Assembly: GCA_028716725.1 (NCBI GenBank)
Contig: JAQUPG010000001.1
Location: 47,660-111,659 of the forward strand
From: Patescibacteria group bacterium
GTDB lineage: Bacteria; Patescibacteriota; Patescibacteriia; Patescibacteriales; JAQTRU01
Length of the DNA stretch: 64,000 nucleotides
Direction: 5' to 3'
Within the stretch, counting starts at the first letter, position 1. Every line of letters begins with the position of its first letter. The translations under genes were made by a program, and so were the position numbers. The notes under the pieces are model-generated. The model worked only from the letters and a program-made list of their open reading frames with translations. It was not told the DNA's origin and ran no database searches. This document shows positions 707-63,840 of the stretch, piece after piece.

Positions 707-877
707 TTATCTCCTCGGCCGACTGTCACGTCTTTGTCTGTGGCAGTCACGGCAGAAAATTGGCCTGTCTCCGTCCGGTTGAAAAGGCAGTTCGGTAATT
801 TCACAACCGCAGCCAGAGCAGGTCCAGTTTCCCTGGTACATTTGGCGTTGGCCAAAGGAGCTGTTTTGATCGCTCAT
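707..877 (-). CDS. small zinc-ribbon protein (CxxC-x17-CxxC), 56 aa, absent from ORF track (<60 aa)
   Basis: Reverse strand reads MSDQNSSFGQRQMYQGNWTCSGCGCEITELPFQPDGDRPIFCRDCHRQRRDSRPRR*. It has two CxxC pairs and its own promoter at 954-982. Confidence 0.7.
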   Translation of the reverse strand: MSDQNSSFGQRQMYQGNWTCSGCGCEITELPFQPDGDRPIFCRDCHRQRRDSRPRR

Positions 878-982: not shown

Positions 983-991
983 TTATGAATA

Positions 992-1066
992 CCTCTCCCC
1001 CCAGCCCCCTCTCCTAATTAGGAGAGGGGGAGGAGACCCGCCAGCTGGCGGGACGACGGGGTGAGG
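992..1066. repeat. nested GC-rich palindromic element (copy A)
   Basis: Sequence CCTCTCCCC..CCCCTCTCCTAATTAGGAGAGGGG..CCCGCCAGCTGGCGGG..GGGGTGAGG. Homologous copies lie at 17158-17218 and inside tsaD at 30338-30392. Confidence 0.85.
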
Positions 1067-1072
1067 TAAATG

Positions 1073-1133: not shown

Positions 1134-1364
1134 TTATACGATTTTGAAACCGAGTTTTTCCAATTCTTCCGCCGCCTTGTTAGGCGGGATACCCAGACCA
1201 TAGGCGTATGTATTTGCCAGAGAAAGATCTATGGGTGTGAGCATATTATCCTCATCCCCCGGCCACTTTACGCCCGCCACATCAGCTTCTTCTCCTACGC
1301 CCGCTACTTCGCTGTCGTCTCCCGTTACTACTGCTACGCCGGTTCCGCCTGTTTGTTGGCTCAT
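1134..1364 (-). CDS. hypothetical acidic protein, 76 aa
   Basis: ATG preceded by a strong SD (agagGGAGGaaagt). No motif recognised. Confidence 0.6.
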   Translation of the reverse strand: MSQQTGGTGVAVVTGDDSEVAGVGEEADVAGVKWPGDEDNMLTPIDLSLANTYAYGLGIPPNKAAEELEKLGFKIV

Positions 1365-17148: not shown

Positions 17149-17157
17149 ATGTTCAAG

Positions 17158-17218
17158 ACCTCACCCCCGGCCCCTCTCCTAATTAGGAGAGGGGAGGAGC
17201 GATAGCGACGGGGTGAGG
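17158..17218. repeat. nested GC-rich palindromic element (copy B)
   Basis: CCTCACCCCCGGCCCCTCTCCTAATTAGGAGAGGGGAGGAGCGATAGCGACGGGGTGAGG. It fills most of the 82-bp gap between the GH57 stop and the kinase start. Confidence 0.85.
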
Positions 17219-17230
17219 TGCAAAATTGTA

Positions 17231-25663: not shown

Positions 25664-28600
25664 CTATGTTTGTTTCTTTTTTTGGACAATGAAAATGACA
25701 AAAAGCAAAATCCCGACAATCATGATTAGGGCGGCGATGATAATATAATACTTTATTAAGTTTCCCGTCTGGCTCGTGGGCGTAACCGGGGCGACCGTTT
25801 CCGAGATGAAGTCTCCGACTGAAGCCGCTTTCGCTTCCTGGATGAAGAAACTCAAAGGGTTGCTCTTAGAAACAATTTTGCCGGTATTATCATTTAAGGC
25901 CACATAAACTTCATGCTCGCCCTCAATCAAAGACTGGGTAAAATCGTATTGCCAGTTTCCGTATTCATCGGCCTTTACCGTCGCGACCAAGGGCAAATCA
26001 GAATAAAGATAAAGAGTTATCGTGCTGCCTGCTTCCGCTATACCCGCGAGGCTATAGCCTTTATTTAAATTGTTCTCATCCAGAATGTTATCAACACTGT
26101 CAACGGACAAATTTTCCGAAACTTCGCCTTCGGATTTAGGCTGGCTTAATTTTTTATTGGCCATAATAGCCTCCTCGATCGGGGAAAGGACGTTTCCCAA
26201 ATTTCCTTCTCCAGAGGGGTTATAATTGTTTTTCACTTCGGCGCCGTCATCATAACCGTCTCCGTCCGTATCTGCCTTTTGGGGGTCAGTGCCCAATCTT
26301 TTTTCCATATCATCAGGCAGCCCGTCCTGGTCGCTGTCAATCATTAAGGCCATGGGCGCGGTCTGGATTAAATTGTCGCCGTCGTCAAGAGTTAATTTTC
26401 CCTCCATGCCCAAAACTTTCAAACCGGCTTTTCCCTCTTTTAAGGGCATCATCCCTTTAGCCACATCCAGACTGGCTGTCAGTTCTTCCTGGGTGACAGA
26501 GCCGCCGGCCAGATGAACCGCTTTTTCTTCAAGCTCCTGATATTGGACCTGGGTGGCTACAATATTCCCCAGATGCCTTTCTTTTATGGAATTTTTGCAT
26601 TGCCAGTCGTCTATCCCCTGGCAGACTACTTGCGGTGCGTATTTGCTAAACATGAAATCCTGGCATTTTGCGTCATCTTCTATGCCGGCCGCTAAGCATT
26701 CTTTCGGCCCGTATTTTTTAAACATTATTTTATCGCAATCACTCCTTGTTTTTGCCCCGGTCTGCTGGCATTCTTTCGGCATATTCTTTTGCTGCATATA
26801 AAGTTCGCATTTTCCCTCATCCGTTATGCCCTGATCCTGGCATTCTTTCGGCATATACATTTTTCTCATTACTTTATCGCAATCCGTGGAATTAGTGGCT
26901 CCGGCTTTTTGGCATTCTATCGGAAGTTGATCAGCCGGAACTTTTTCCGCTCCGCCGTATTTTTCAAACATGTATTTTTTACAGGCCTCCATGGTTGAAA
27001 TTCCGGCTTCCTTGCAGTCGGTTGGAGCGGATTTTTCAAACATAAATTTTTCGCATTTATCCGGAGTGCTGATTCCGGCATCTATACATTCCTTAGGGGC
27101 GTTTTTTTTAAATAATATTTTACTGCACTCTTCCGCAGAACTCGCTCCGGCTTGCCGGCACTCTTCCGGCAGGCCCACTTCTTTAATTTCGGTTCCCTGT
27201 TCCGTTTTCACCTCAACCTTTACCAGGACATTCAGGTTGCTGGCTTTTCCCCGTAAAATGTAGTCGCATTCTTCCATAGTTGTTACCCCCGCCTCCCGGC
27301 ATTCCGGCGCCATAAAGTTTTGGGCCATGTATTTATCGCAAGCGGCCTGGTCGGTAATTTTGGCTTTTTCACATTCCGGCGATAACCGTACCTGAATTTT
27401 TACAAGTTTATCGCATTCCTCCCTGCTTTTTACTTGCGCCTTTTGGCATTCGGTCGGCATGCTGTTCAGAAATATTATATTATTGCATTCTTCCGGCGTG
27501 GTTACTTGCGCCTTTTGGCATTCGGTCGGCATGGAAAATCTATATGAATATTTTTTGCATTCTTCCTGGTCTAAAATTCCCTTCTCTCGGCATTGGGGCG
27601 GGATAGCCATATATTTATTGCATTCATCTTGCGAAAGCAACCCTTTGTCTCGGCACTCCGGAGGAATGGCTTTAAATTTTTGGCATTCTTCCTGCGAAAG
27701 CAGGCCTCTTTCCCGGCAATCAGGCGGGATATTCATAAATCTCTGGCATTCTTCTATGGAAGTAATATTATTTTTTTTACATTCCGGAAGAAGTTCCGGC
27801 TGGACCTGGGGTACCATTGGTTGTGGTTGCTTTTCCATTATTTCCGGATTCATCGGCTGGGTCGGCGGGAGGAGATTATTTGGTGATGTTCCGTTATTAA
27901 TAATCTGGATGCTGAAAGACCGGGAAGTTTTTATGGTTCCGGCTAATCTGGCATTGGCTGTAATTTTGTAGTAGCCATTAGGAAAACTAGGCGTATTCCA
28001 CATAAAATAATATTGCCGGTTATTATCGCGGATGCCATTATATTTATAGCTTTTTGGTCCTTCAATGGAAAAATCCACTCCGTCCACATCTTTGTTTAAA
28101 GAAGCCGTAACCCTTTTTTCGCCAGTTAGAGGCGGCTGGAAAGCTTCCATAAAAGTAATTTCGTAAGAAGTAGTTGAATCGGCGGGTTTGGTTGATAAAT
28201 CAACTGGCGCAGTGGGCGTAATGGGCGTAGCGGGTGTAGGATTAGTAAGATTATTTGGCGTTTTTAGAGTAGAATTTTCAACCGTAACATCTATTTGTTT
28301 TAAGGCATCAATATAACCGCTTTTTTTTGCCGAAGCTTTAATAGTGTACTGGCCATTAGAAACCGATGCCGTATCCCAGATAAAAGAATAAGTATTATTG
28401 CCCTTAGAAATCGCATTGGATTTTTTTATCTCCGCCCCGTCTTTATAAATATAAAAAACTACCTCCGCAGCTTCGCTGGTTCTCACGGAAAAATTGGGCT
28501 GGCCGGAAAGTCTCATCGGCGGAGAAAGAAATTCCAGAGTCAGAATATAATGGGTGGAAGTATCAGTCGTGTCGGTAATTATATCCTGGAATATAATATT

Positions 28601-29218
28601 GGAATCGCTGGCGGAAGGGGTTGTGTTTACAGCGGGGTTAGCGGCGTTTAGATTGTTTTTAACATCAACAAAGATCTGGTCATAATCATAGGTAAAAGTT
28701 TCCTGGCCCGCAGTATCGTTTCTGGTAACATAGCTGTTGGAGTCAATAATGTAAGAACCGTCAGCTACGGTTGTCGTATCCCAGGTAGCACTAAGCAAAC
28801 CATTTTGCCAAAACATCGGCAAATCTTTTTTAATGACGGTGCCAGCTCTGTTGCTGATATTCAGAGAAGCCTTAGCATCGCTTAAAGAAGGCTTAACCTG
28901 GATATTAATTTTTCCTGAAACCGTGGCGCCTGAAGCCGGGCTGGTAATTTTGGCTGTTAGCTCTACGGGGGTATAAGTAGTAGTATTTGTCGTTGAAGTA
29001 TCAGTGGTGGTGTCTGAAGTTGGGGCAATATAAGTCGTGGTATCTATCGTTGGAGTTGTGTAAGTTGTGGTTGTTGAGGGGGCGGTGTAATAAGTATTAT
29101 CAGTGCTTGTTTGAGCTTGCCCGGCTAAGACGGGGATAAATAAAAAAACCGCCTGATTTAATATCAAAATAGCGGTCAAGAAAATGTTAATAGATTTTGA
29201 TTGGGTTAGCCTCCTCAT
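25664..29218 (-). CDS. large surface protein: signal peptide, Thr-rich linker, Ig-like domains, ~20 Cys-pair repeats, TSP3-like Ca-binding repeats, C-terminal TM anchor
   Basis: 1184 aa. Three W-D/N-T..NG.Y.I Ig-like modules are present. A repeated P-x-E-C-x3-G-x6-C-x-K-x-M motif occupies roughly residues 478-905. DSDQDGLPDD..DTDGDGYDDG follows, and the final hydrophobic helix ends in KKKQT. Confidence 0.85.
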   Translation of the reverse strand: MRRLTQSKSINIFLTAILILNQAVFLFIPVLAGQAQTSTDNTYYTAPSTTTTYTTPTIDTTTYIAPTSDTTTDTSTTNTTTYTPVELTAKITSPASGATVSGKINIQVKPSLSDAKASLNISNRAGTVIKKDLPMFWQNGLLSATWDTTTVADGSYIIDSNSYVTRNDTAGQETFTYDYDQIFVDVKNNLNAANPAVNTTPSASDSNIIFQDIITDTTDTSTHYILTLEFLSPPMRLSGQPNFSVRTSEAAEVVFYIYKDGAEIKKSNAISKGNNTYSFIWDTASVSNGQYTIKASAKKSGYIDALKQIDVTVENSTLKTPNNLTNPTPATPITPTAPVDLSTKPADSTTSYEITFMEAFQPPLTGEKRVTASLNKDVDGVDFSIEGPKSYKYNGIRDNNRQYYFMWNTPSFPNGYYKITANARLAGTIKTSRSFSIQIINNGTSPNNLLPPTQPMNPEIMEKQPQPMVPQVQPELLPECKKNNITSIEECQRFMNIPPDCRERGLLSQEECQKFKAIPPECRDKGLLSQDECNKYMAIPPQCREKGILDQEECKKYSYRFSMPTECQKAQVTTPEECNNIIFLNSMPTECQKAQVKSREECDKLVKIQVRLSPECEKAKITDQAACDKYMAQNFMAPECREAGVTTMEECDYILRGKASNLNVLVKVEVKTEQGTEIKEVGLPEECRQAGASSAEECSKILFKKNAPKECIDAGISTPDKCEKFMFEKSAPTDCKEAGISTMEACKKYMFEKYGGAEKVPADQLPIECQKAGATNSTDCDKVMRKMYMPKECQDQGITDEGKCELYMQQKNMPKECQQTGAKTRSDCDKIMFKKYGPKECLAAGIEDDAKCQDFMFSKYAPQVVCQGIDDWQCKNSIKERHLGNIVATQVQYQELEEKAVHLAGGSVTQEELTASLDVAKGMMPLKEGKAGLKVLGMEGKLTLDDGDNLIQTAPMALMIDSDQDGLPDDMEKRLGTDPQKADTDGDGYDDGAEVKNNYNPSGEGNLGNVLSPIEEAIMANKKLSQPKSEGEVSENLSVDSVDNILDENNLNKGYSLAGIAEAGSTITLYLYSDLPLVATVKADEYGNWQYDFTQSLIEGEHEVYVALNDNTGKIVSKSNPLSFFIQEAKAASVGDFISETVAPVTPTSQTGNLIKYYIIIAALIMIVGILLFVIFIVQKKKQT

Positions 29219-29730: not shown

Positions 29731-29748
29731 TGTAGTCCCTAGGGGAAT
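29731..29748 (-). repeat. 18-nt duplicate of the tRNA-Glu 3' end (att-like direct repeat)
   Basis: tgtagtccctaggggaat is identical to 29948-29965, which covers the last 15 nt of tRNA-Glu, the discriminator and 2 nt beyond. Confidence 0.85.
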
Positions 29749-29949
29749 TCCGCCTCGTCCCGCCTTCCGGCGGGACTTCGTTGTCCTGGGCAGCGCCGAG
29801 TCCTGCGCCAGCTCGGACTCGTCGATGCTCGACAGCGTTTCTCGCCGACCGAATTTTAGCTCGAAACTTGTCTCGCTTCTGCCCGTTCGATTCCCCCGGT
29901 GATAAACACCATAATTTAAAAAACGGGATGAACCCGTTTTTAAATTATG

Positions 29950-30117: not shown

Positions 30118-31242
30118 ATGAAAATATTGGGCATAGAAACCAGTTGTGATGAAACTGCCGCGGCTATTGTTGAGGGTAAAAAGGTAGGGACACAAAATTT
30201 TGTGTCCGTACAATCTAATGTGGTTTCTTCGCAAATAGAAATCCATAAAAAATACGGGGGCGTAGTGCCGGAAGTAGCAGCCCGGGAGCATGTTTTAAAT
30301 ATTTTGCCCGTAGTTAACGAAGCTTTGGAAAAAGCAGACCTCACCCCCCGCCCCCCTCTCCTAGGCAGGAGAGGGGGAGCAAAGGGGAGAGGTATAGACG
30401 TTATTGCCGTTACAGTCGGGCCGGGTTTAATAACCTCTTTAATGGTTGGCGTAGAAACTGCCAAAATTTTGTCTTATGTGTGGAATATTCCTTTGGTAGG
30501 TGTAAACCACATTGAGGGACATATTTACGCTAACTTCGTTAGCGTAAATTCCAAATTCCAAATTCCAAATTCCAAACAAATCCAAAATTCAAAATCCCAA
30601 ATTTCAAATATAAAGTTTCCGGCATTGATTTTGACAGTTTCCGGGGGGCATACGATGTTGGTTTTAATGGCTGGGCATGGAAAGTATAAAATAATTGGGG
30701 AAACACGGGATGACGCGGCCGGGGAGGCGTTTGATAAAGCGGCTAAACTTTTGGGCGTTGGTTATCCCGGAGGACCGGCAATCGCCGCTTACGCGGCTAA
30801 GTCAAAAGTCAAAAGTCAAAAGTCAAAAGTTTCTTTACCTAGGCCGATGATAAATTCAAATGATTATGATTTTTCTTTTTCCGGCTTAAAGACCGCTTTG
30901 CTTTATAAATTAAAAAAGGATAAAATATGGAAGAAGAAAATTCCGGAATATTGCGCCGAATTTCAGCAGGCCGTAATTGATGTTTTAATTGCCAAAACCG
31001 TTAAAGCCGTCCGGGATTTTAAGGTAAAAACCATAATGCTTTCCGGCGGTGTAGCGGCTAATCAGGAATTGCGCCGGCAGATGAAAGAAAAAATTGAAGT
31101 TTTAATACCTGATTTGAAATATACGACCGATAACGCGGCCATGATCGCTACTGCCGGTTATTTCCATGCCTTAAAAAAAGATTTTATCCCCTGGCAGAAA
31201 ATAAAAGTTGATCCTAATTTAGAATTATCAGCCAGAGGCTGA
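30118..31242 (+). CDS. tsaD: tRNA N6-adenosine threonylcarbamoyltransferase TsaD, carrying three repeat-derived in-frame insertions
   Basis: MKILGIETSCDETAAAI.., HIEGH metal site, GGVAAN and TDNAAMI motifs. Extra segments are encoded at 30338-30392, 30546-30612 and 30801-30829. Confidence 0.9.
   Translation: MKILGIETSCDETAAAIVEGKKVGTQNFVSVQSNVVSSQIEIHKKYGGVVPEVAAREHVLNILPVVNEALEKADLTPRPPLLGRRGGAKGRGIDVIAVTVGPGLITSLMVGVETAKILSYVWNIPLVGVNHIEGHIYANFVSVNSKFQIPNSKQIQNSKSQISNIKFPALILTVSGGHTMLVLMAGHGKYKIIGETRDDAAGEAFDKAAKLLGVGYPGGPAIAAYAAKSKVKSQKSKVSLPRPMINSNDYDFSFSGLKTALLYKLKKDKIWKKKIPEYCAEFQQAVIDVLIAKTVKAVRDFKVKTIMLSGGVAANQELRRQMKEKIEVLIPDLKYTTDNAAMIATAGYFHALKKDFIPWQKIKVDPNLELSARG
30338..30392. 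repeat. nested GC-rich palindromic element (copy C), inside the tsaD reading frame
   Basis: CCTCACCCCCCGCCCCCCTCTCCTAGGCAGGAGAGGGGGAGCAAAGGGGAGAGG, translated as LTPRPPLLGRRGGAKGRG. Confidence 0.85.
30546..30612 (+). repeat. heptamer tandem repeat (AAATTCC x4 plus degenerate units) inside tsaD
   Basis: Four exact units at 30546-30573, then aaacaaatcc/aaaattc/aaaatccc/aaatttc. It encodes NSKFQIPNSKQIQNSKSQISNIK. Confidence 0.85.
30801..30829 (+). repeat. heptamer tandem repeat GTCAAAA x4 inside tsaD
   Basis: Exact 4 units encoding KSKVKSQKSKV. A related GTCAAAAGTCGAAA array is coding in the Elp3-like gene at 53415-53443. Confidence 0.85.
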
Positions 31243-34843: not shown

Positions 34844-34959
34844 AGAGATATAATTCGAATACTTTAAATTAATTATTCAAATGCTTCAAATAATTATATT
34901 GCTTCTAAATTTTGGCAATAACACTTGAAGTATTTGAATGAATTTGTAGATTTGAATTA
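34844..34959. repeat. ~115-bp intergenic cassette, paralogue 1 (between DUF4870-like stop and ppsA start)
   Basis: It shares gatataattcgaat, attcaaatgcttcaaat and ttgaagyatttgaatgratttgtaratttgaatta blocks with 48995-49104. Internal arms are attcaaatgcttcaaat/atttgaagtatttgaat. Confidence 0.85.
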
Positions 34960-36955: not shown

Positions 36956-37020
36956 CTTTTCTCGCCTACGCGAGCAACCGTGGGCCTTGCCCGCCGTAGT
37001 CCCGAAGGCTCGGGACGTAG

Positions 37021-37105
37021 GCGGGTATCGTATAATGGTTTATTACCTGCCTGCCGGTAGGCAGGTGTTAGCCCTGTCTGCCGACAGGCAGGCTTCCAAG
37101 CTGAA
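37021..37105 (+). pseudogene. tRNA-Gly 5' pseudo-copy (acceptor to anticodon stem) disrupted by two 20-nt hairpin insertions
   Basis: gcgggtatcgtataatggtttatta + [cctgcctgccggtaggcagg] + tgttagcc + [ctgtctgccgacaggcagg(c)] + ttccaagctgaa. Apart from the inserts this matches the intact tRNA-Gly at 37361. The T-arm and 3' acceptor are missing. Confidence 0.8.
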
Positions 37106-48994: not shown

Positions 48995-49104
48995 AGATAT
49001 AATTCGAATTAATTTAAATAAAATTCAAATGCTTCAAATGCTATTATTGGAGATAATTTATAATACAATTATTTGAAGCATTTGAATGGATTTGTAAATT
49101 TGAA
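48995..49104. repeat. ~110-bp intergenic cassette, paralogue 2 (between folD stop and gdh start)
   Basis: Homologous to 34844-34959, with 17-bp arms attcaaatgcttcaaat/atttgaagcatttgaat. Confidence 0.85.
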
Positions 49105-49965
49105 TTATTTTTTAAGTTTATATAATTCTAAGGTGTTTCTAAAAAGCATGGCAATAGTCAAGGGCCCGACGCCTCCGGGTACGGGCGTTATATAACCGGC
49201 TTTGTCCTTAACTTCAGCAAAGTCGACATCACCACAGACCTTTCCCGCTTTTTTGGTTATGCCAATGTCAATTACTATAGCTTCTTTTTTTATCATCTCT
49301 TTTTTTATGAATTTTGGCTTGCCGATAGCGGTAATTAAAATATCAGCTTCACTTGTTTCTTTACCTAAATTTTTGTCGCCGGATTTTATAGTTTTAACTT
49401 TTGCCTTCTGGCATTCTAAAATTTTTTCCAAACTTTTTCCGAAGATATCCGAGTTAGCAATAATACAAATTTTTTTATTTTTTAATTGATAACCTACACC
49501 GGAGAGCATTTCTAAAACAGCGGAAAAAACCGGAGAAATAAGATGATTATGATTACAGCTTCCCAAGATTATTTTTAAATTTTCTGGATGGAAGCAATCC
49601 ACGTCTTTCGACGGGTCAATGGCTTTTATAATCTTGTCAGTATCAAAACCTTTCGGCAAAGGCAATTGAACTAAGATTCCGTCAATTAATTTATCATTAT
49701 TTAAGCATTCTATGGTAGAGATAATTTTATTTTCTTCCGTGTTTTCCGGCAATTTGTAAGTATGGACATCGATTCCGACCCTTTTTGCTTCCTTTTCTTT
49801 TAAATTGACATAAAGTTTTGAATCTTCACGTTCCCCGATTAAAATAATCGCCAGATTGGGCCGTCTTTGGCAATCCGGTTTATTATTATTAAGTTCAAGA
49901 ATTTCTTTTACAATCTGGTCTTTAATTTTTTCCGCCAAAGCTTGGCCGTCAATTATTTTTCCCAT
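49105..49965 (-). CDS. folD: bifunctional methylenetetrahydrofolate dehydrogenase/cyclohydrolase
   Basis: Start set at MGKIIDGQALAEKIK; motifs VQLPLP and PVPGGVGP. Confidence 0.9.
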   Translation of the reverse strand: MGKIIDGQALAEKIKDQIVKEILELNNNKPDCQRRPNLAIILIGEREDSKLYVNLKEKEAKRVGIDVHTYKLPENTEENKIISTIECLNNDKLIDGILVQLPLPKGFDTDKIIKAIDPSKDVDCFHPENLKIILGSCNHNHLISPVFSAVLEMLSGVGYQLKNKKICIIANSDIFGKSLEKILECQKAKVKTIKSGDKNLGKETSEADILITAIGKPKFIKKEMIKKEAIVIDIGITKKAGKVCGDVDFAEVKDKAGYITPVPGGVGPLTIAMLFRNTLELYKLKK

Positions 49966-52391: not shown

Positions 52392-53960
52392 CTACTCCTC
52401 TCTGAGGGTTTTTACCATATAGGTATTTTCTAATTTGTAGCCAAGTTTTTTGTAATATTCCCTGACTCCTATTCCGGATATTACAATAATTTTTTTAAAT
52501 CCGCAACCACGGGCGATTTTTTCCGCTTCAAACATTAATTTTTTTCCCAAACCGGCGTGCTGGACTTTTTTATTTTTGCCGACCGGAACCAATTCGCCGT
52601 AAACGTGCAGCTCACGGATAATAGCCCTATCATCTAACCGTAATCGGCAAAAACCATAAAGAGTTTTTTTATCTTTAGATTCATAACTAATAAAATATTC
52701 TTGTCCGCCGGAAGCTTTATATTTTTTAATGAACAGTTTCAGGTCGCTGGTTTTAAATTGTCTATTTCCTACTTCCCGGCAGCGGACGCAATTGCATTTT
52801 ACTCCCTTATCTTTCATAATCTGCCGCAGATTAGTAATAATATTTCCGGCGATAATTGATTCTTTGGGAATGTCCCGGATTAACCTGATGATGCGAACGT
52901 AAGGCGGGATTATTTTTTTGCATTTTATAATTAAATTTTGCAACTGTTTATCCGAATATGGTTTGTATTTTCCCTCCCTCCACCATTTATAGAGTAAACT
53001 GCCGCGGGTAACGACCGTTGGATAAAATTTAATCTGGTCCGGCTGAAAGCGCTCATCAGAAAAAAGTTTTTTAAACATTAAAAAATCCTTGGCCGGAGTG
53101 GAACCGGGCAGGCCGGGCATGATATGATAGGTGACTTTGAAGCCGAAATCTTTAAGAAGTTTCGTGGCTTTGGCAATCTCGGCTATGCCATGGCCGCGCT
53201 TGTTTAAAGCCAAAATTTTATTATCAATCGCTTGCACTCCTAACTCTACTCGCGTACAACCGAGTTCCCTCATCTGCCAGAGCTCTTTTTCGTTAATATA
53301 ATCCGGCCGGGTTTCTAAAGTGATGCCGATAAGGCGGTATTTTGCTTTTTCATTTTTACTTTGTTCTTTAACCAATTCTTTTTTTAATTTTTTAATTTTG
53401 ATTTTTGAATTGTACTTTCGACTTTTGACTTTCGACTTTTGACTAAAATTATTCGCCGCCGCGAAACAATTTTTTATGAACCAGTATTTATATTTCTCTG
53501 GCAAGACGCTCCAAGTTGCGCCGATGACAATCAATTCAATTTTGTTCGGCTCGTGGCCGTTAGCTTCCAAAGCGCGCAGGCGGAGCTGGACTTGCTTGTA
53601 TGGATCGTAATGGCAAAGAATTGCCCGCATTACCGCCGGTTCATTAGACAAATAACTTTGCGGCACGCCTTTTTCCGAAGGGCAATAAACGCATTTGCCT
53701 GGGCAGGGGTAGGGCTTTATTAAAACCGCTACGGGCGCAATCCCCGACATTGTTCGCATCGCCCTTTTGCGAAGGATTCTTTCTAAGGTTGGATTGTCTT
53801 TTATTTTTTTTGCAGTTTTAAGCTCTTGGTATTTTTTCAAAATATCAGAGTTAAGCAGAATGCCAATCTTAAATTTCTTCGCCACTTTTCTTTTAGCCGC
53901 GGTCAATTCGTCCCCTGATTTTATGTTTAATTTTAGCAGTTCTTCGATTGCTTTTTCCAT
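52392..53960 (-). CDS. Elp3-like radical SAM / GNAT acetyltransferase (tRNA U34 modification family)
   Basis: 522 aa. CPGKCVYCP radical-SAM Cys triad, ETRPD, and a C-terminal GNAT block (QHAGLGKKLMFEAE). It contains a repeat-encoded K/S-rich insert. Confidence 0.85.
   Translation of the reverse strand: MEKAIEELLKLNIKSGDELTAAKRKVAKKFKIGILLNSDILKKYQELKTAKKIKDNPTLERILRKRAMRTMSGIAPVAVLIKPYPCPGKCVYCPSEKGVPQSYLSNEPAVMRAILCHYDPYKQVQLRLRALEANGHEPNKIELIVIGATWSVLPEKYKYWFIKNCFAAANNFSQKSKVKSRKYNSKIKIKKLKKELVKEQSKNEKAKYRLIGITLETRPDYINEKELWQMRELGCTRVELGVQAIDNKILALNKRGHGIAEIAKATKLLKDFGFKVTYHIMPGLPGSTPAKDFLMFKKLFSDERFQPDQIKFYPTVVTRGSLLYKWWREGKYKPYSDKQLQNLIIKCKKIIPPYVRIIRLIRDIPKESIIAGNIITNLRQIMKDKGVKCNCVRCREVGNRQFKTSDLKLFIKKYKASGGQEYFISYESKDKKTLYGFCRLRLDDRAIIRELHVYGELVPVGKNKKVQHAGLGKKLMFEAEKIARGCGFKKIIVISGIGVREYYKKLGYKLENTYMVKTLREE
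53415..53443 (-). repeat. GTCAAAAGTCGAAA x2 tandem repeat inside the Elp3-like CDS
   Basis: Plus strand reads ctttcgacttttgactttcgacttttgac. It encodes part of SQKSKVKSRKYNSKIKIKKLKK. Confidence 0.8.
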
Positions 53961-55948: not shown

Positions 55949-56934
55949 GTGCACACACATCTTGCACTTTCTGGTAATCTAGGGGCATATGTCAAAAACT
56001 ATGCCCAAATCAACTCAAGAAGAGAAATACAGATGGATTAAGCCCATTCTGGGCAAAGAAATAAGCATTAAGCAGATGGCTAAGGTGTGCTCGTTCTCTG
56101 AAAGAGCATTAAAGTATTGGCTGGCCAATTTCAGGCTATACGGAAGGGCGGGATTAGAGAATAAATCTACCCGGCCCAAGAGTCAGCCGAATGAGACCCC
56201 AATTAGGATTAAAGAGCGGGTAATAGAACTGCGAAATGAAACCAAACTCTGCGCTAAGAAGCTAAACTACAAATTAAAAAAAGAGAATATATTAATTCAT
56301 GACCGCACGATTGGAAAAATAATCAAAACCGAAGGGTTGGTTAGAAAATACCGAATCAGGAAATTGAAATATAAATATGTGAAACTGCCGTTGGCGGCAG
56401 GCGAATTGGTGGAGATTGATATTAAGTTTGTGCCTAAAAGATTGGGGAATAAACGCTATTACCAGTTTACGGCCATAGACTGCGCTACCAGGTGGAGATA
56501 TTTAAAAATTTACGATAATATGGGCAATGGCCAGGCGATTGATTTTTTTGAGGAATTAAAATCAATGGCTCCGTTCAGAATCAGAACAATTAAAACGGAT
56601 AATGGCAGCTGTTTCACTAATCGCTATACCGGTTACCTGAGATCGGCCGATCCTTTAAACCCGAGATTGCATCCCTTTGATTTATGCCTAATGGAAGAAA
56701 ATAATATATTACATTATTTGATTGATCCGGGCAAGCCGGCCCAGAACGGCAAAGCGGAGAGGAGCCACCGGACAGACCAGGAGATGTTTTATGATAGACG
56801 CAAATTTAAAACTGTATTAGGATTAAAACGAGCGCTTAAACAATGGAATAATAATTACAATAATTTAGAACATTGCGCTCTGGACGGCCTCACTCCAAAT
56901 GAGGCTTTGGCTAGAGTGCAAAATGTCTGTGCCT
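55949..56934 (+). mobile_element. IS481-family insertion sequence (single ORF, DDE/rve)
   Basis: Imperfect terminal inverted repeats gtgcacacacatcttgcact (55949-55968) and agtgcaaaatgtctgtgcct (56915-56934). The right IR overlaps the transposase stop, as is typical for IS481. The exact ends and target duplication were not resolved. Confidence 0.75.
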
Positions 56935-60313: not shown

Positions 60314-60348
60314 CGCATAACGCATATCGCGTAACGCATAACACATAA
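60314..60348. repeat. heptamer tandem array CGCATAA x5 (left member of an inverted pair)
   Basis: cgcataa cgcatat cgcgtaa cgcataa cacataa, beginning 6 nt upstream of the ymdB ATG. Confidence 0.85.
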
Positions 60349-60440
60349 CGTTGCCAAATGTCTAAGTTTAAAAAGTATTAGGGTGGAACATAGTAAAAAT
60401 AGATATTTGGTGTTAGGCGAAGTTGTATTGGTTACTTCTT

Positions 60441-61013
60441 TTAATTTATAAATTCCGCGATTTCTGGATATTTCTTTTTAAATTCTTCTGAAAGATTGCA
60501 TGTGCCCATACAATCAGGAAACCAGTAATTATAGTCTTTTTCTCTTTCTCCGAAAAGAAATTCTGAGCTTCCGTCTTTAAATATTGCTGAAATTTCATAT
60601 GGTTCTCCAACATTGTCTGGCGCTTTAATGGTCAGTGTAATAAGATTAATTTCTTTTTCATTATAATAATCTATATACGGGTTAACCAATTTTTTTTCAA
60701 AATTTTTCTTTTCTGTTTTATCCAATATCCATGGATTAGTATAGAATACTACTGGCAATTTAATATCCTTTGCTGTGTCCAGTAATTTTGTTGGAGTTGG
60801 CTCTACTGTTACTTTTAAATCAGCATTTTCTTTCTGAAGTTCAACAATTTGTTTTAGCAAAGATTGTTCCGTGGATTTTAAATTTAACCTTTGCCATGCG
60901 TAGACACCGCTGCCAACGATTATGGCTGTCGCAACAACAAAAATTGCCATTATCCAAATATTTTTTGAGCTTTGGGTGGGCCTATTTGATTGCGGAAAGT
61001 TTTGTTCGTTCAT
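60441..61013 (-). CDS. hypothetical membrane-anchored protein, 190 aa
   Basis: One N-terminal TM (IWIMAIFVVATAIIVGSGVYAW). It sits between rny and ymdB, which are adjacent in the B. subtilis rny-ymdB operon. Confidence 0.6.
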   Translation of the reverse strand: MNEQNFPQSNRPTQSSKNIWIMAIFVVATAIIVGSGVYAWQRLNLKSTEQSLLKQIVELQKENADLKVTVEPTPTKLLDTAKDIKLPVVFYTNPWILDKTEKKNFEKKLVNPYIDYYNEKEINLITLTIKAPDNVGEPYEISAIFKDGSSEFLFGEREKDYNYWFPDCMGTCNLSEEFKKKYPEIAEFIN

Positions 61014-61123
61014 AATTGTTTAAGTCAAATGTTAGTTTGTTTATATTATATCAAATTATATCGGCTATTAAAATAAATTACCGAAAAAATCTTGAAAATA
61101 ATATAATTTCGTCTAACTTTAAT

Positions 61124-61165
61124 TATGTGTTAGCGTTACGCGTTATGAGTTATGTGTTGTGCGCA
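61124..61165. repeat. heptamer tandem array TTATGTG-type x6 (right member, inverted relative to 60314-60348)
   Basis: ttatgtg ttagcg ttacgcg ttatgag ttatgtg ttgtgcg, ending 3 nt from the rny stop. Confidence 0.85.
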
Positions 61166-63791: not shown

Positions 63792-63840
63792 ATTTTCAAT
63801 TTTTAATTTTCAATTTTTAATAACCCTGCCTAACGGCAGG
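63792..63840. repeat. clpP 5'-UTR repeats: ATTTTCAATTTTTA x2 tandem plus CCTGCC/GGCAGG mini-hairpin
   Basis: Two exact 14-mers at 63792-63819. The hairpin cctgcctaacggcagg at 63825-63840 is related to the 20-nt inserts in the tRNA-Gly pseudo-copy. Confidence 0.8.

Follow-up and report, generated by a model that had tools for sequence, protein, structure and literature searches.

A palindromic repeat resembling BoxC/triplex-motif elements is carried in frame by tsaD of a Patescibacteria genome

The tsaD gene of a Patescibacteria group bacterium contains, in frame, a short GC-rich palindromic element that is also found between genes of the same genomic region. We analysed this region as a stretch of 64,000 nucleotides (contig JAQUPG010000001.1, positions 47,660 to 111,659), which is called the window below. 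The element is present at 3 copies per 64 kb, two of them intergenic and one intragenic (Table 1), and each copy lies within 1 nt of the place assigned to it by a sequence-only reading of the window. We consider it likely that a dispersed, non-coding repeat of the triplex type has left a copy of itself in tsaD, carried as a near-neutral passenger in a loop that tolerates it. A repeat search of the window groups the three copies in one family with 81-86% mutual identity, and their core, CCCTCTCCTANNNAGGAGAGGG, is present at exactly three window loci against 0.00 expected. This core was absent from 100 shuffles, and the occurrence of the three copies is thus non-random. The purine block GGAGAGGGG gives 6 strand matches in the window against 0.32 expected. 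Moreover, each copy is predicted to fold into a nested hairpin (-42 to -55 kcal/mol, z = -4.5 to -6.0), and strong structure is predicted for either strand of the element. Other GC-rich islands within genes of the window contain no further palindromic insert, and the tsaD copy is the sole in-gene one in the 64 kb.

The repeat and its family

In the unit, CCCCTCTCC (pyrimidine) and GGAGAGGGG (purine) are separated by a loop, and a second loop of 2-3 nt leads to another purine block, GGGGTGAGG. The minus strand of copy 2 presents it as CCCCTCTCC-TAATTA-GGAGAGGGG-CCG-GGGGTGAGG, with block and loop sizes of 9/6/9/3/9 nt. This final block mirrors the purine arm, with a T facing one A. When GGAGAGGGG and GGGGTGAGG are set antiparallel, solely G-G, A-A and T-A pairs arise, which allows G·G:C, A·A:T and T·A:T triads. 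All window copies are two-sided, or 'palindromic', so that the motif can be read on both strands, and in 3/3 the minus strand holds the compact version, whose second loop is short. In copy 3, CGG separates the minus-strand third block GGGGTGAGGT from the inner purine arm, and the minus-strand motif is CCCCCTCTCCTGCCTAGGAGAGGGGGGCGGGGGGTGAGG. Copy 1 carries an additional internal hairpin (CCCGCCAGCTGGCGGG), and its 5' block, CCTCTCCCC, has one mismatch.

The sequence-only reading had described the element as outer arms enclosing an inner palindrome. The blocks are indeed there, but the arms are not primarily a second stem, being mostly one-sided elsewhere. We scanned 185,579 species genomes (GTDB, one per species) for the inner hairpin alone, the 'outer arm' being left out of the pattern, and at least 119 loci matched. 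The hosts of the matches listed belong to about ten phyla; among them are Patescibacteria, Chloroflexota/Dehalococcoidia, Gammaproteobacteria, Bacteroidota, Ignavibacteria, Nitrospira, Cyanobacteria, Oscillibacter, Latescibacterota, Bathyarchaeia and others. A third block, CCTC[AT]CC just upstream or GG[AT]GAGG just downstream (<=22 nt), accompanies 107 of the 126 hairpins listed (85%), against a background of 1.2% per side, and is found on both sides in only 8 of them. Because it is usually one-sided, the third block cannot serve chiefly to pair in a second stem. Inner purine arm and third block vary together in G-run length (r = 0.75, n = 157), the second loop is mostly 2-3 nt long, and the triad position is T in 133 cases and A in 24. 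Judged by sequence, an intrastrand triplex motif of the BoxC/PIT/TMECO type is the better reading, the outer arms being its mirror-repeat third blocks.

BoxC, PIT and triplex-motif repeats (Bachellier et al.; Hoyne & Maher 2000, 2002) became known in the 1990s. The family is described from Proteobacteria and cyanobacteria, and the TMECO motif of E. coli reads CCCTCTCCC-N3-6-GGGAGAGGG-N3-GGGTGAGGG (Holder et al. 2015, PMC4666352). The window element shares with it the three-block layout and a nearly identical sequence, in agreement with the published pattern and with Table 1 of that paper (PMC4666352), and it places the T·A:T triad at the same loop-proximal position. The second-loop sequence CCG and the block and loop sizes of copy 2 are like those of TMECO type B. 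Both have 'palindromic' two-strand forms, lack an associated transposase (for the present element, among the 56 window ORFs) and are associated with locally variable DNA, and the present element, like TMECO, is probably dispersed and multi-copy. However, the register in the window is off by one G, and the literal regular expression is not matched: against the consensus CCCTCNCCC N3-6 GGGNGAGGG N3 GGGNGAGGG, 8/9 positions agree per block. A blastn search of 5,426 E. coli genomes with copy 2 gave no match, the query being short and of low complexity, and the likeness to TMECO therefore rests on pattern comparison with the published table. As a consequence of the register shift and of the missing blastn match, we file the element as a family variant and not as TMECO proper. 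The hosts also differ, since the present one is a Patescibacteria genome of 41% GC. Finally, the E. coli copies are 'always located intergenically' (PMC4666352), whereas here, and in nine other genes, the element lies in frame within coding sequence.

An Rfam search of the window at gathering thresholds returned tRNAs only, with no match to the element, and a permissive search with copies 1 and 3 gave only sub-threshold matches to generic miRNA hairpins. No RNA family, ribozyme or intron known to Rfam fits the element. In Chloroflexota bin_187 (L006, L010, L015, L031, L038, L042, L044 and others), the module makes up the 5' part of composite repeats that are longer, include another conserved hairpin (CTCCCCCCGATGTCGGGGGGA) and have many copies per genome. 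In Dehalococcoidia (L014, L025, L027, L028 and others), it is likewise the 5' part of lineage-specific composites, whose second hairpin is AGAGGGGCTnnGCCCCTCT and which are present in many copies per genome.

Table 1. Copies of the element in the window, their parts and the host gene (ORF, open reading frame)
Feature	Position	Strand	Length	Remarks
Copy 1, intergenic	991..1067		77 nt	Between treble-clef zinc-finger ORF 707-877(-) (Pfam scan) and small ORF 1134-1364(-)
Copy 2, intergenic	17158..17219		62 nt	Between GH57 gene stop (17231) and APH-family gene start (17148), both genes on the minus strand
tsaD	30118..31242	+	374 aa	tRNA t6A37 threonylcarbamoyltransferase; TIGR03723 372 bits, cutoff 296
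Copy 3, in frame in tsaD	30338..30393		56 nt	With the preceding G, codons D74-G92, DLTPRPPLLGRRGGAKGRG
Copy 3, 5' block ACCTCACCCC	30338..30347	+		Minus-strand reading is the third (mirror-repeat) block GGGGTGAGGT
Copy 3, inner hairpin CCCCCTCTCC-TAGGCA-GGAGAGGGGG	30352..30377			11-bp stem
Copy 3, 3' block GGGGAGAGGT	30384..30393	+		Plus-strand third block, A·A:T type, 3' of spacer AGCAAA

Filled and empty tsaD loops

The best PDB match of the ORF that carries copy 3 is Thermotoga TsaD (5e-76), and a 100% identical protein (P0001) is encoded in the Patescibacteria metagenome-assembled genome (MAG) GCA_028712785.1. The sequence-only reading had held that the catalytic motifs are intact and the frame kept. 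Indeed, the metal-binding histidines H131 and H135 and residue D338 are invariant among the aligned orthologues, copy 3 is stop-free and the change in length is a multiple of three; the translation given for the segment, LTPRPPLLGRRGGAKGRG, is also correct.

We aligned 120 Patescibacteria TsaDs (58-100% identity) and examined the loop between helix alpha1 and strand beta4. The loop is empty in 52 of the 120 orthologues, which have a 10-residue GIKREEAAKK-like sequence at this place. About 26 carry the triplex-type element, read as xLTPxPPLLIRRGG... or, in variant spacing, as LTPALSLxRRG, and 42 carry translations of other small GC-rich hairpins (SPLPPLLKGA and similar, PPLLKGG-type), some insert occupying the loop in 68/120. 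The insert is common to related lineages and not unique to the window genome. Its boundaries are identical in the window and in loci L120, L122, L123 and L124 (GCN N/ACCTCACCCC ... GAGAGGT/ATAGAC, with slashes at the junctions), where the 3' spacer is AGCAAA or a close variant (AGTAAA, GGTAAA, AGCAAG). Locus L125 (P0027) has the same boundaries with a longer subtype that resembles window copy 2.

In L121 and L126, two relatives with an empty site, the place consists of GGGATTAAACGTGAAGAAGCGGCGGAAAAA or of a 30-nt sequence nearly identical to it. Close relatives with an empty site are ~87-90% identical over conserved alignment columns, and the gene order around tsaD is the same in those without the element. 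From the empty to the filled state, 30 nt become 57 nt and the 10 ancestral codons (GIKREEAAEK) become 19. As the filled allele does not contain those 30 nt, empty alleles cannot derive from it by deletion, and the empty state is therefore ancestral. The proposed in-frame insertion is thus in frame but is not a pure insertion, since 10 codons were swapped for 19. Similarly, the estimate of about 15 extra residues holds against Thermotoga TsaD, that of T. maritima having a 15-residue gap here and no such peptide, whereas the gain is just 9 residues (19 vs 10) against the closest empty orthologues. By the by-eye alignment of the sequence-only reading, E. coli TsaD lacks the segment too. The filled allele is present in independent NCBI, JGI and ENA assemblies, which rules out an assembly artefact. 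A 56-aa concatenation of three peptide variants, searched against a database of 5.8 billion proteins, gave 514 word-sharing candidates, none with E <= 10.

Across six filled orthologues, no stop interrupts the segment and its length stays divisible by three, despite nested insertions of 18 nt and 21 nt and a 3-nt deletion. These insertions are a second palindrome, which in two lineages is nested at one and the same point (CTCTC^CTA) of the tsaD element, within its hairpin loop: L120 carries the 18 nt CCTGCCTGCGCAGACAGG and L123 the 21 nt CCTGCCTCGCCGGCAGGCAGG, and the frame is kept in both. The two CCTGCC...GGCAGG insertions are independent events. Mini-hairpins of the form CCTGCC..GGCAGG are also intergenic in the window (37046-37065 and 63825-63840) and are found in L121 (5905-5925). 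Signs of decay are seen as well in L122 and L125, where both stem and third block contain mismatches. An empty site is also known for copy 2: the GH57 and APH genes are separated by ~4 nt in L136, which has an 84% identical APH protein.

We ran AlphaFold2 on a 42-sequence alignment and obtained a confident model of TsaD, with a mean predicted local distance difference test (pLDDT) score of 81.9 and a predicted template modelling (pTM) score of 0.82. In this model residues 73-94 form a coil between helix 51-72 and strand 95-101, with pLDDT <50 at residues 81-90, and the insert is predicted to be a low-confidence surface coil. Its peptide is rich in Pro, Arg and Gly and has a net charge of +5. 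The tsaD copy persists because it offers a stop-free frame and a net change that is a multiple of three, in a loop that varies in length and lies apart from the invariant catalytic residues.

Copy 3 is one of three repeat-derived inserts in the window TsaD. At 30546-30609, the heptamer AAATTCC is repeated in tandem 9.6 times, with the in-frame reading SKFQIPNSKQIQNSKSQIS; compared with Thermotoga TsaD, this array adds 18 residues, pLDDT is <50 at residues 146-162, and the same site ranges in orthologues from no array (IGEPEVK) to longer arrays with nested hairpins. At 30799-30830, the heptamer AAGTCAA/GTCAAAA is repeated 4.6 times and read as KSKVKSQKSKV. This heptamer is found again at 53396-53444, with ~7 in-frame repeats in the radical-SAM domain of ORF 52395-53960 (-), an Elp3-like radical SAM and GNAT gene. 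The CCTGCC...GGCAGG mini-palindromes also appear in translation in orthologues, where sites 2 and 3 of TsaD have LPAGRQ-like peptides.

Origin and role of the tsaD segment

In-frame copies are not restricted to tsaD. Long stop-free spans hold 18 of the 126 elements listed elsewhere, and nine of these spans are genuine genes by Pfam. They code in Patescibacteria for MurG (L005, in a genome shared with the P0007 TsaD) and for two glycosyltransferases of family 4 (GT4; L056 and L108), in Saccharibacteria for TsaE (L045) and in an unclassified bacterium MAG (DBS2-1.bin63) for RsmA/KsgA (L086). The Chloroflexota copies lie in a GT4 glycosyltransferase (L042) and a PMT_2 protein (L075), and the remaining two in a helicase of Calothrix PCC 7103 (L087) and an NB-ARC/TPR protein of Nostocaceae (L009). 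Every verified in-gene copy sits in a stop-free frame. The canonical form with a TAATTA loop has one stop-free frame per strand, PPLLIRRGG, and the in-gene copies with this loop all read PLLIRRG (L005, L086, L108, P0007 and P0027).

We propose the following scenario. In the ancestor of a small Patescibacteria clade, the repeat would have taken the place of the 10-codon alpha1-beta4 surface loop of TsaD. Copying may have proceeded through an extruded hairpin or single-stranded DNA, by template switching, ectopic repair or a trans-acting enzyme, and the filled allele would then have spread between related lineages by homologous recombination. The segment would be transcribed and translated as a disordered loop rich in Pro, Arg and Gly, and would be a near-neutral passenger rather than an adaptation.

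Several observations weigh against this scenario. No Y1/HUH transposase turned up when the 56 window ORFs were scanned with Pfam, and no convincing target-site duplication is visible at any filled/empty junction, either in tsaD or at the copy 2 site. As neither a transposase nor a target-site duplication nor another mobility signature accompanies the element, 'mobile' is a term drawn from presence/absence and nesting only. The replacement of sequence rather than its addition is not predicted by simple insertion models. In a bootstrapped neighbour-joining tree of 328 conserved TsaD columns, the filled proteins P0001, P0002 and P0007 form a clade with 87.5% support and P0003 and P0008 another with 93%, and the two are joined with only 28% support; P0003 (filled) is, furthermore, 89.9% identical to P0021 (empty). 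In addition, the triplex went undetected in double-stranded DNA of E. coli and in vivo (PMC4666352), so that the triplex property may be irrelevant to the biology of the element.

Since identical ends are found in two clades that are not clearly sisters, either there were two gains with the same ends or the filled allele was transferred by homologous recombination, and we favour transfer. A single gain in one clade is left unsupported by neighbour-joining (28%), a result that does not rule it out. No convincing microhomology was seen at the tsaD and copy 2 junctions.

One may ask whether the element acts as a nucleic acid within the gene. Its mRNA hairpin (-42 kcal/mol) could slow ribosomes, serve as a point of RNase processing or decay and tune TsaD output, or its DNA structure could pause replication and promote local recombination. 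The strong structure predicted for both strands and the symmetry of hairpin and third block, kept across phyla, are in line with such a role. So is the hypervariability of both the tsaD loop and the GH57-APH spacer among relatives, and in E. coli the family is tied to local genomic variability and blocks DNA polymerase in vitro (PMC4666352). However, the E. coli PIT/TMECO repeats showed neither promoter nor terminator activity, nor any effect in vivo (PMC4666352). Moreover, close relatives do without the element in the same gene order, the copies in L122 and L125 are decaying in stem and third block, and the host genes are functionally unrelated. We therefore regard this role as unlikely.

It appears more doubtful still that the segment is an adaptive, lineage-specific loop of TsaD, in which a positive peptide would aid the binding of tRNA or of a partner, the DNA palindrome being incidental. 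The charge of the peptide would suit an enzyme that acts on tRNA, triplex-type inserts are kept in about 26 orthologues, and RNA is a substrate or partner of two other hosts, TsaE and RsmA; yet further hosts include MurG and glycosyltransferases, and the DNA is the same as that of the intergenic copies. In the same loop, unrelated PPLLKGG-type hairpins occupy 42 orthologues and 52 have nothing, the segment is modelled with low confidence, and nested insertions have freely altered its peptide. Finally, the compactness and stability of the hairpin, together with the many rRNA insertions and introns of genomes of the Candidate Phyla Radiation (CPR), might suggest that the element is absent from the mature protein, through intron-like removal from the mRNA or ribosome bypass, but this is scarcely credible given that the six filled orthologues remain stop-free and in multiples of three even with their nested insertions and 3-nt deletion, that the verified in-gene copies all lie in stop-free frames and that no ribozyme or intron family matches in Rfam. 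The reading as a near-neutral passenger is the one that we retain.

Related repeat systems and small repeats of the window

In-frame palindromic repeats are established for the Rickettsia palindromic elements (RPEs; Ogata et al. 2000, 2002) and for some MITEs (miniature transposable elements with inverted repeats; PMC10969869, PMC3184786). The analogy with RPEs drawn by the sequence-only reading is apt as a parallel in outcome, in that an element lies in frame in unrelated genes and between genes. Like RPEs, the palindromes described here occur between genes and in frame in unrelated housekeeping genes, have no transposase of their own and would be read as extra peptide segments compatible with the fold. 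They differ in size (RPEs measure ~100-150 bp, the present elements 56-77 bp) and in range, as RPEs are reported from Rickettsia only and the triplex-type family spans many phyla. By the published descriptions, no mirror-repeat block is mentioned for RPEs. On this comparison, the element is probably of a different family from RPEs and the analogy is one of outcome only.

The likeness to REP/REPIN repeats, which RAYT transposases mobilise, and to MITEs lies in short GC-rich extragenic palindromes with many copies and in a two-sided form with 10-nt terminal inverted blocks. We rejected the REP/RAYT system, the sequences having no GTAG or CGTC tag and the 56 window ORFs no Y1_Tnp domain. A MITE was also rejected, with no convincing target-site duplication and with the sole transposase of the window showing no evident link to the element. 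This transposase, at 55989-56933 (+), is of the DDE type (HTH_28/HTH_32 and rve/rve_3, IS3/IS481-like). Since most copies elsewhere are one-sided, a terminal-inverted-repeat model does not fit. The small dispersed hairpin repeats (SDRs) of cyanobacteria are said to nest, to lie in heptamer tandem arrays and to occur in coding regions, as Elhai et al. reportedly described in Genome Res in 2008. By this description, hairpins such as LPAGRQ within heptamer-derived peptides of CPR TsaD are alike, whereas the sequences and the host phylum differ.

In the full-text literature searched, whose coverage is incomplete, we found no description of such elements in CPR or of triplex-motif/BoxC repeats inside genes, which is absence of evidence only; the sequence-only reading had likewise known of none for this kind of genome. 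The present case combines essentially the same three-block motif across about ten phyla, clean filled and empty sites within a conserved essential gene and independent nested insertions at one hairpin-loop point. Together, these provide handles on how repeats of the BoxC/triplex type move and on what they target. Many of the length differences and 'low-complexity' segments of CPR core proteins would be repeat DNA that ribosomes translate, as in the 68 of 120 TsaDs with an insert at this loop, which bears on annotation, alignment, phylogenetic markers and structure prediction. The Rickettsia precedent is thereby extended to free-living or episymbiotic bacteria with reduced genomes. It is possible, although we would not go so far as to call it probable, that in Patescibacteria the surface loops of housekeeping enzymes are pervasively colonised in frame by several tiny repeat families (triplex-type palindromes, CCTGCC and PPLLKGG-type mini-hairpins, heptamer arrays), which would insert preferentially into hairpin loops and into each other, the filled alleles moving by recombination. 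If this is true, CPR genes would offer a natural filled/empty-site system for the copying of the long enigmatic BoxC/triplex-motif repeats, which are conserved from E. coli to CPR and archaea.

The spacer between the GH57 and APH genes (window 17149-17230) is hypervariable across L128-L139, and in L130-L132, L137 and L139 it contains heptamer arrays with or without a CCTGCC hairpin. As these repeats are those seen in TsaD loops, the same families populate protein loops as well as the DNA between genes. Arrays of heptamers are frequent across the window. Two of them, (CGCATAA) x 5.3 at 60314-60350 and (TTATGCG) x 6.0 at 61123-61163, are mutual reverse complements that flank ORF 60444-61013 (-), for which there is no Pfam match. 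An 85-nt AT-rich repeat pair with 75% identity (34875-34959 and 49023-49107) is located in intergenic spacers, and inverted repeats, ATTCAAATGCTTCAAAT...ATTTGAAGCATTTGAAT, lie within it. Next to tRNA genes are two intergenic stretches rich in GC and in hairpins, at 29737-29834 and 36960-37031, which match no Rfam family even at permissive thresholds. Degenerate tandem repeats of 72 nt and 63 nt at 26624-27755 are ordinary coding repeats inside ORF 25667-29218 (-), a surface-protein-like gene of 1184 aa with TSP3 and Ig-like domains.

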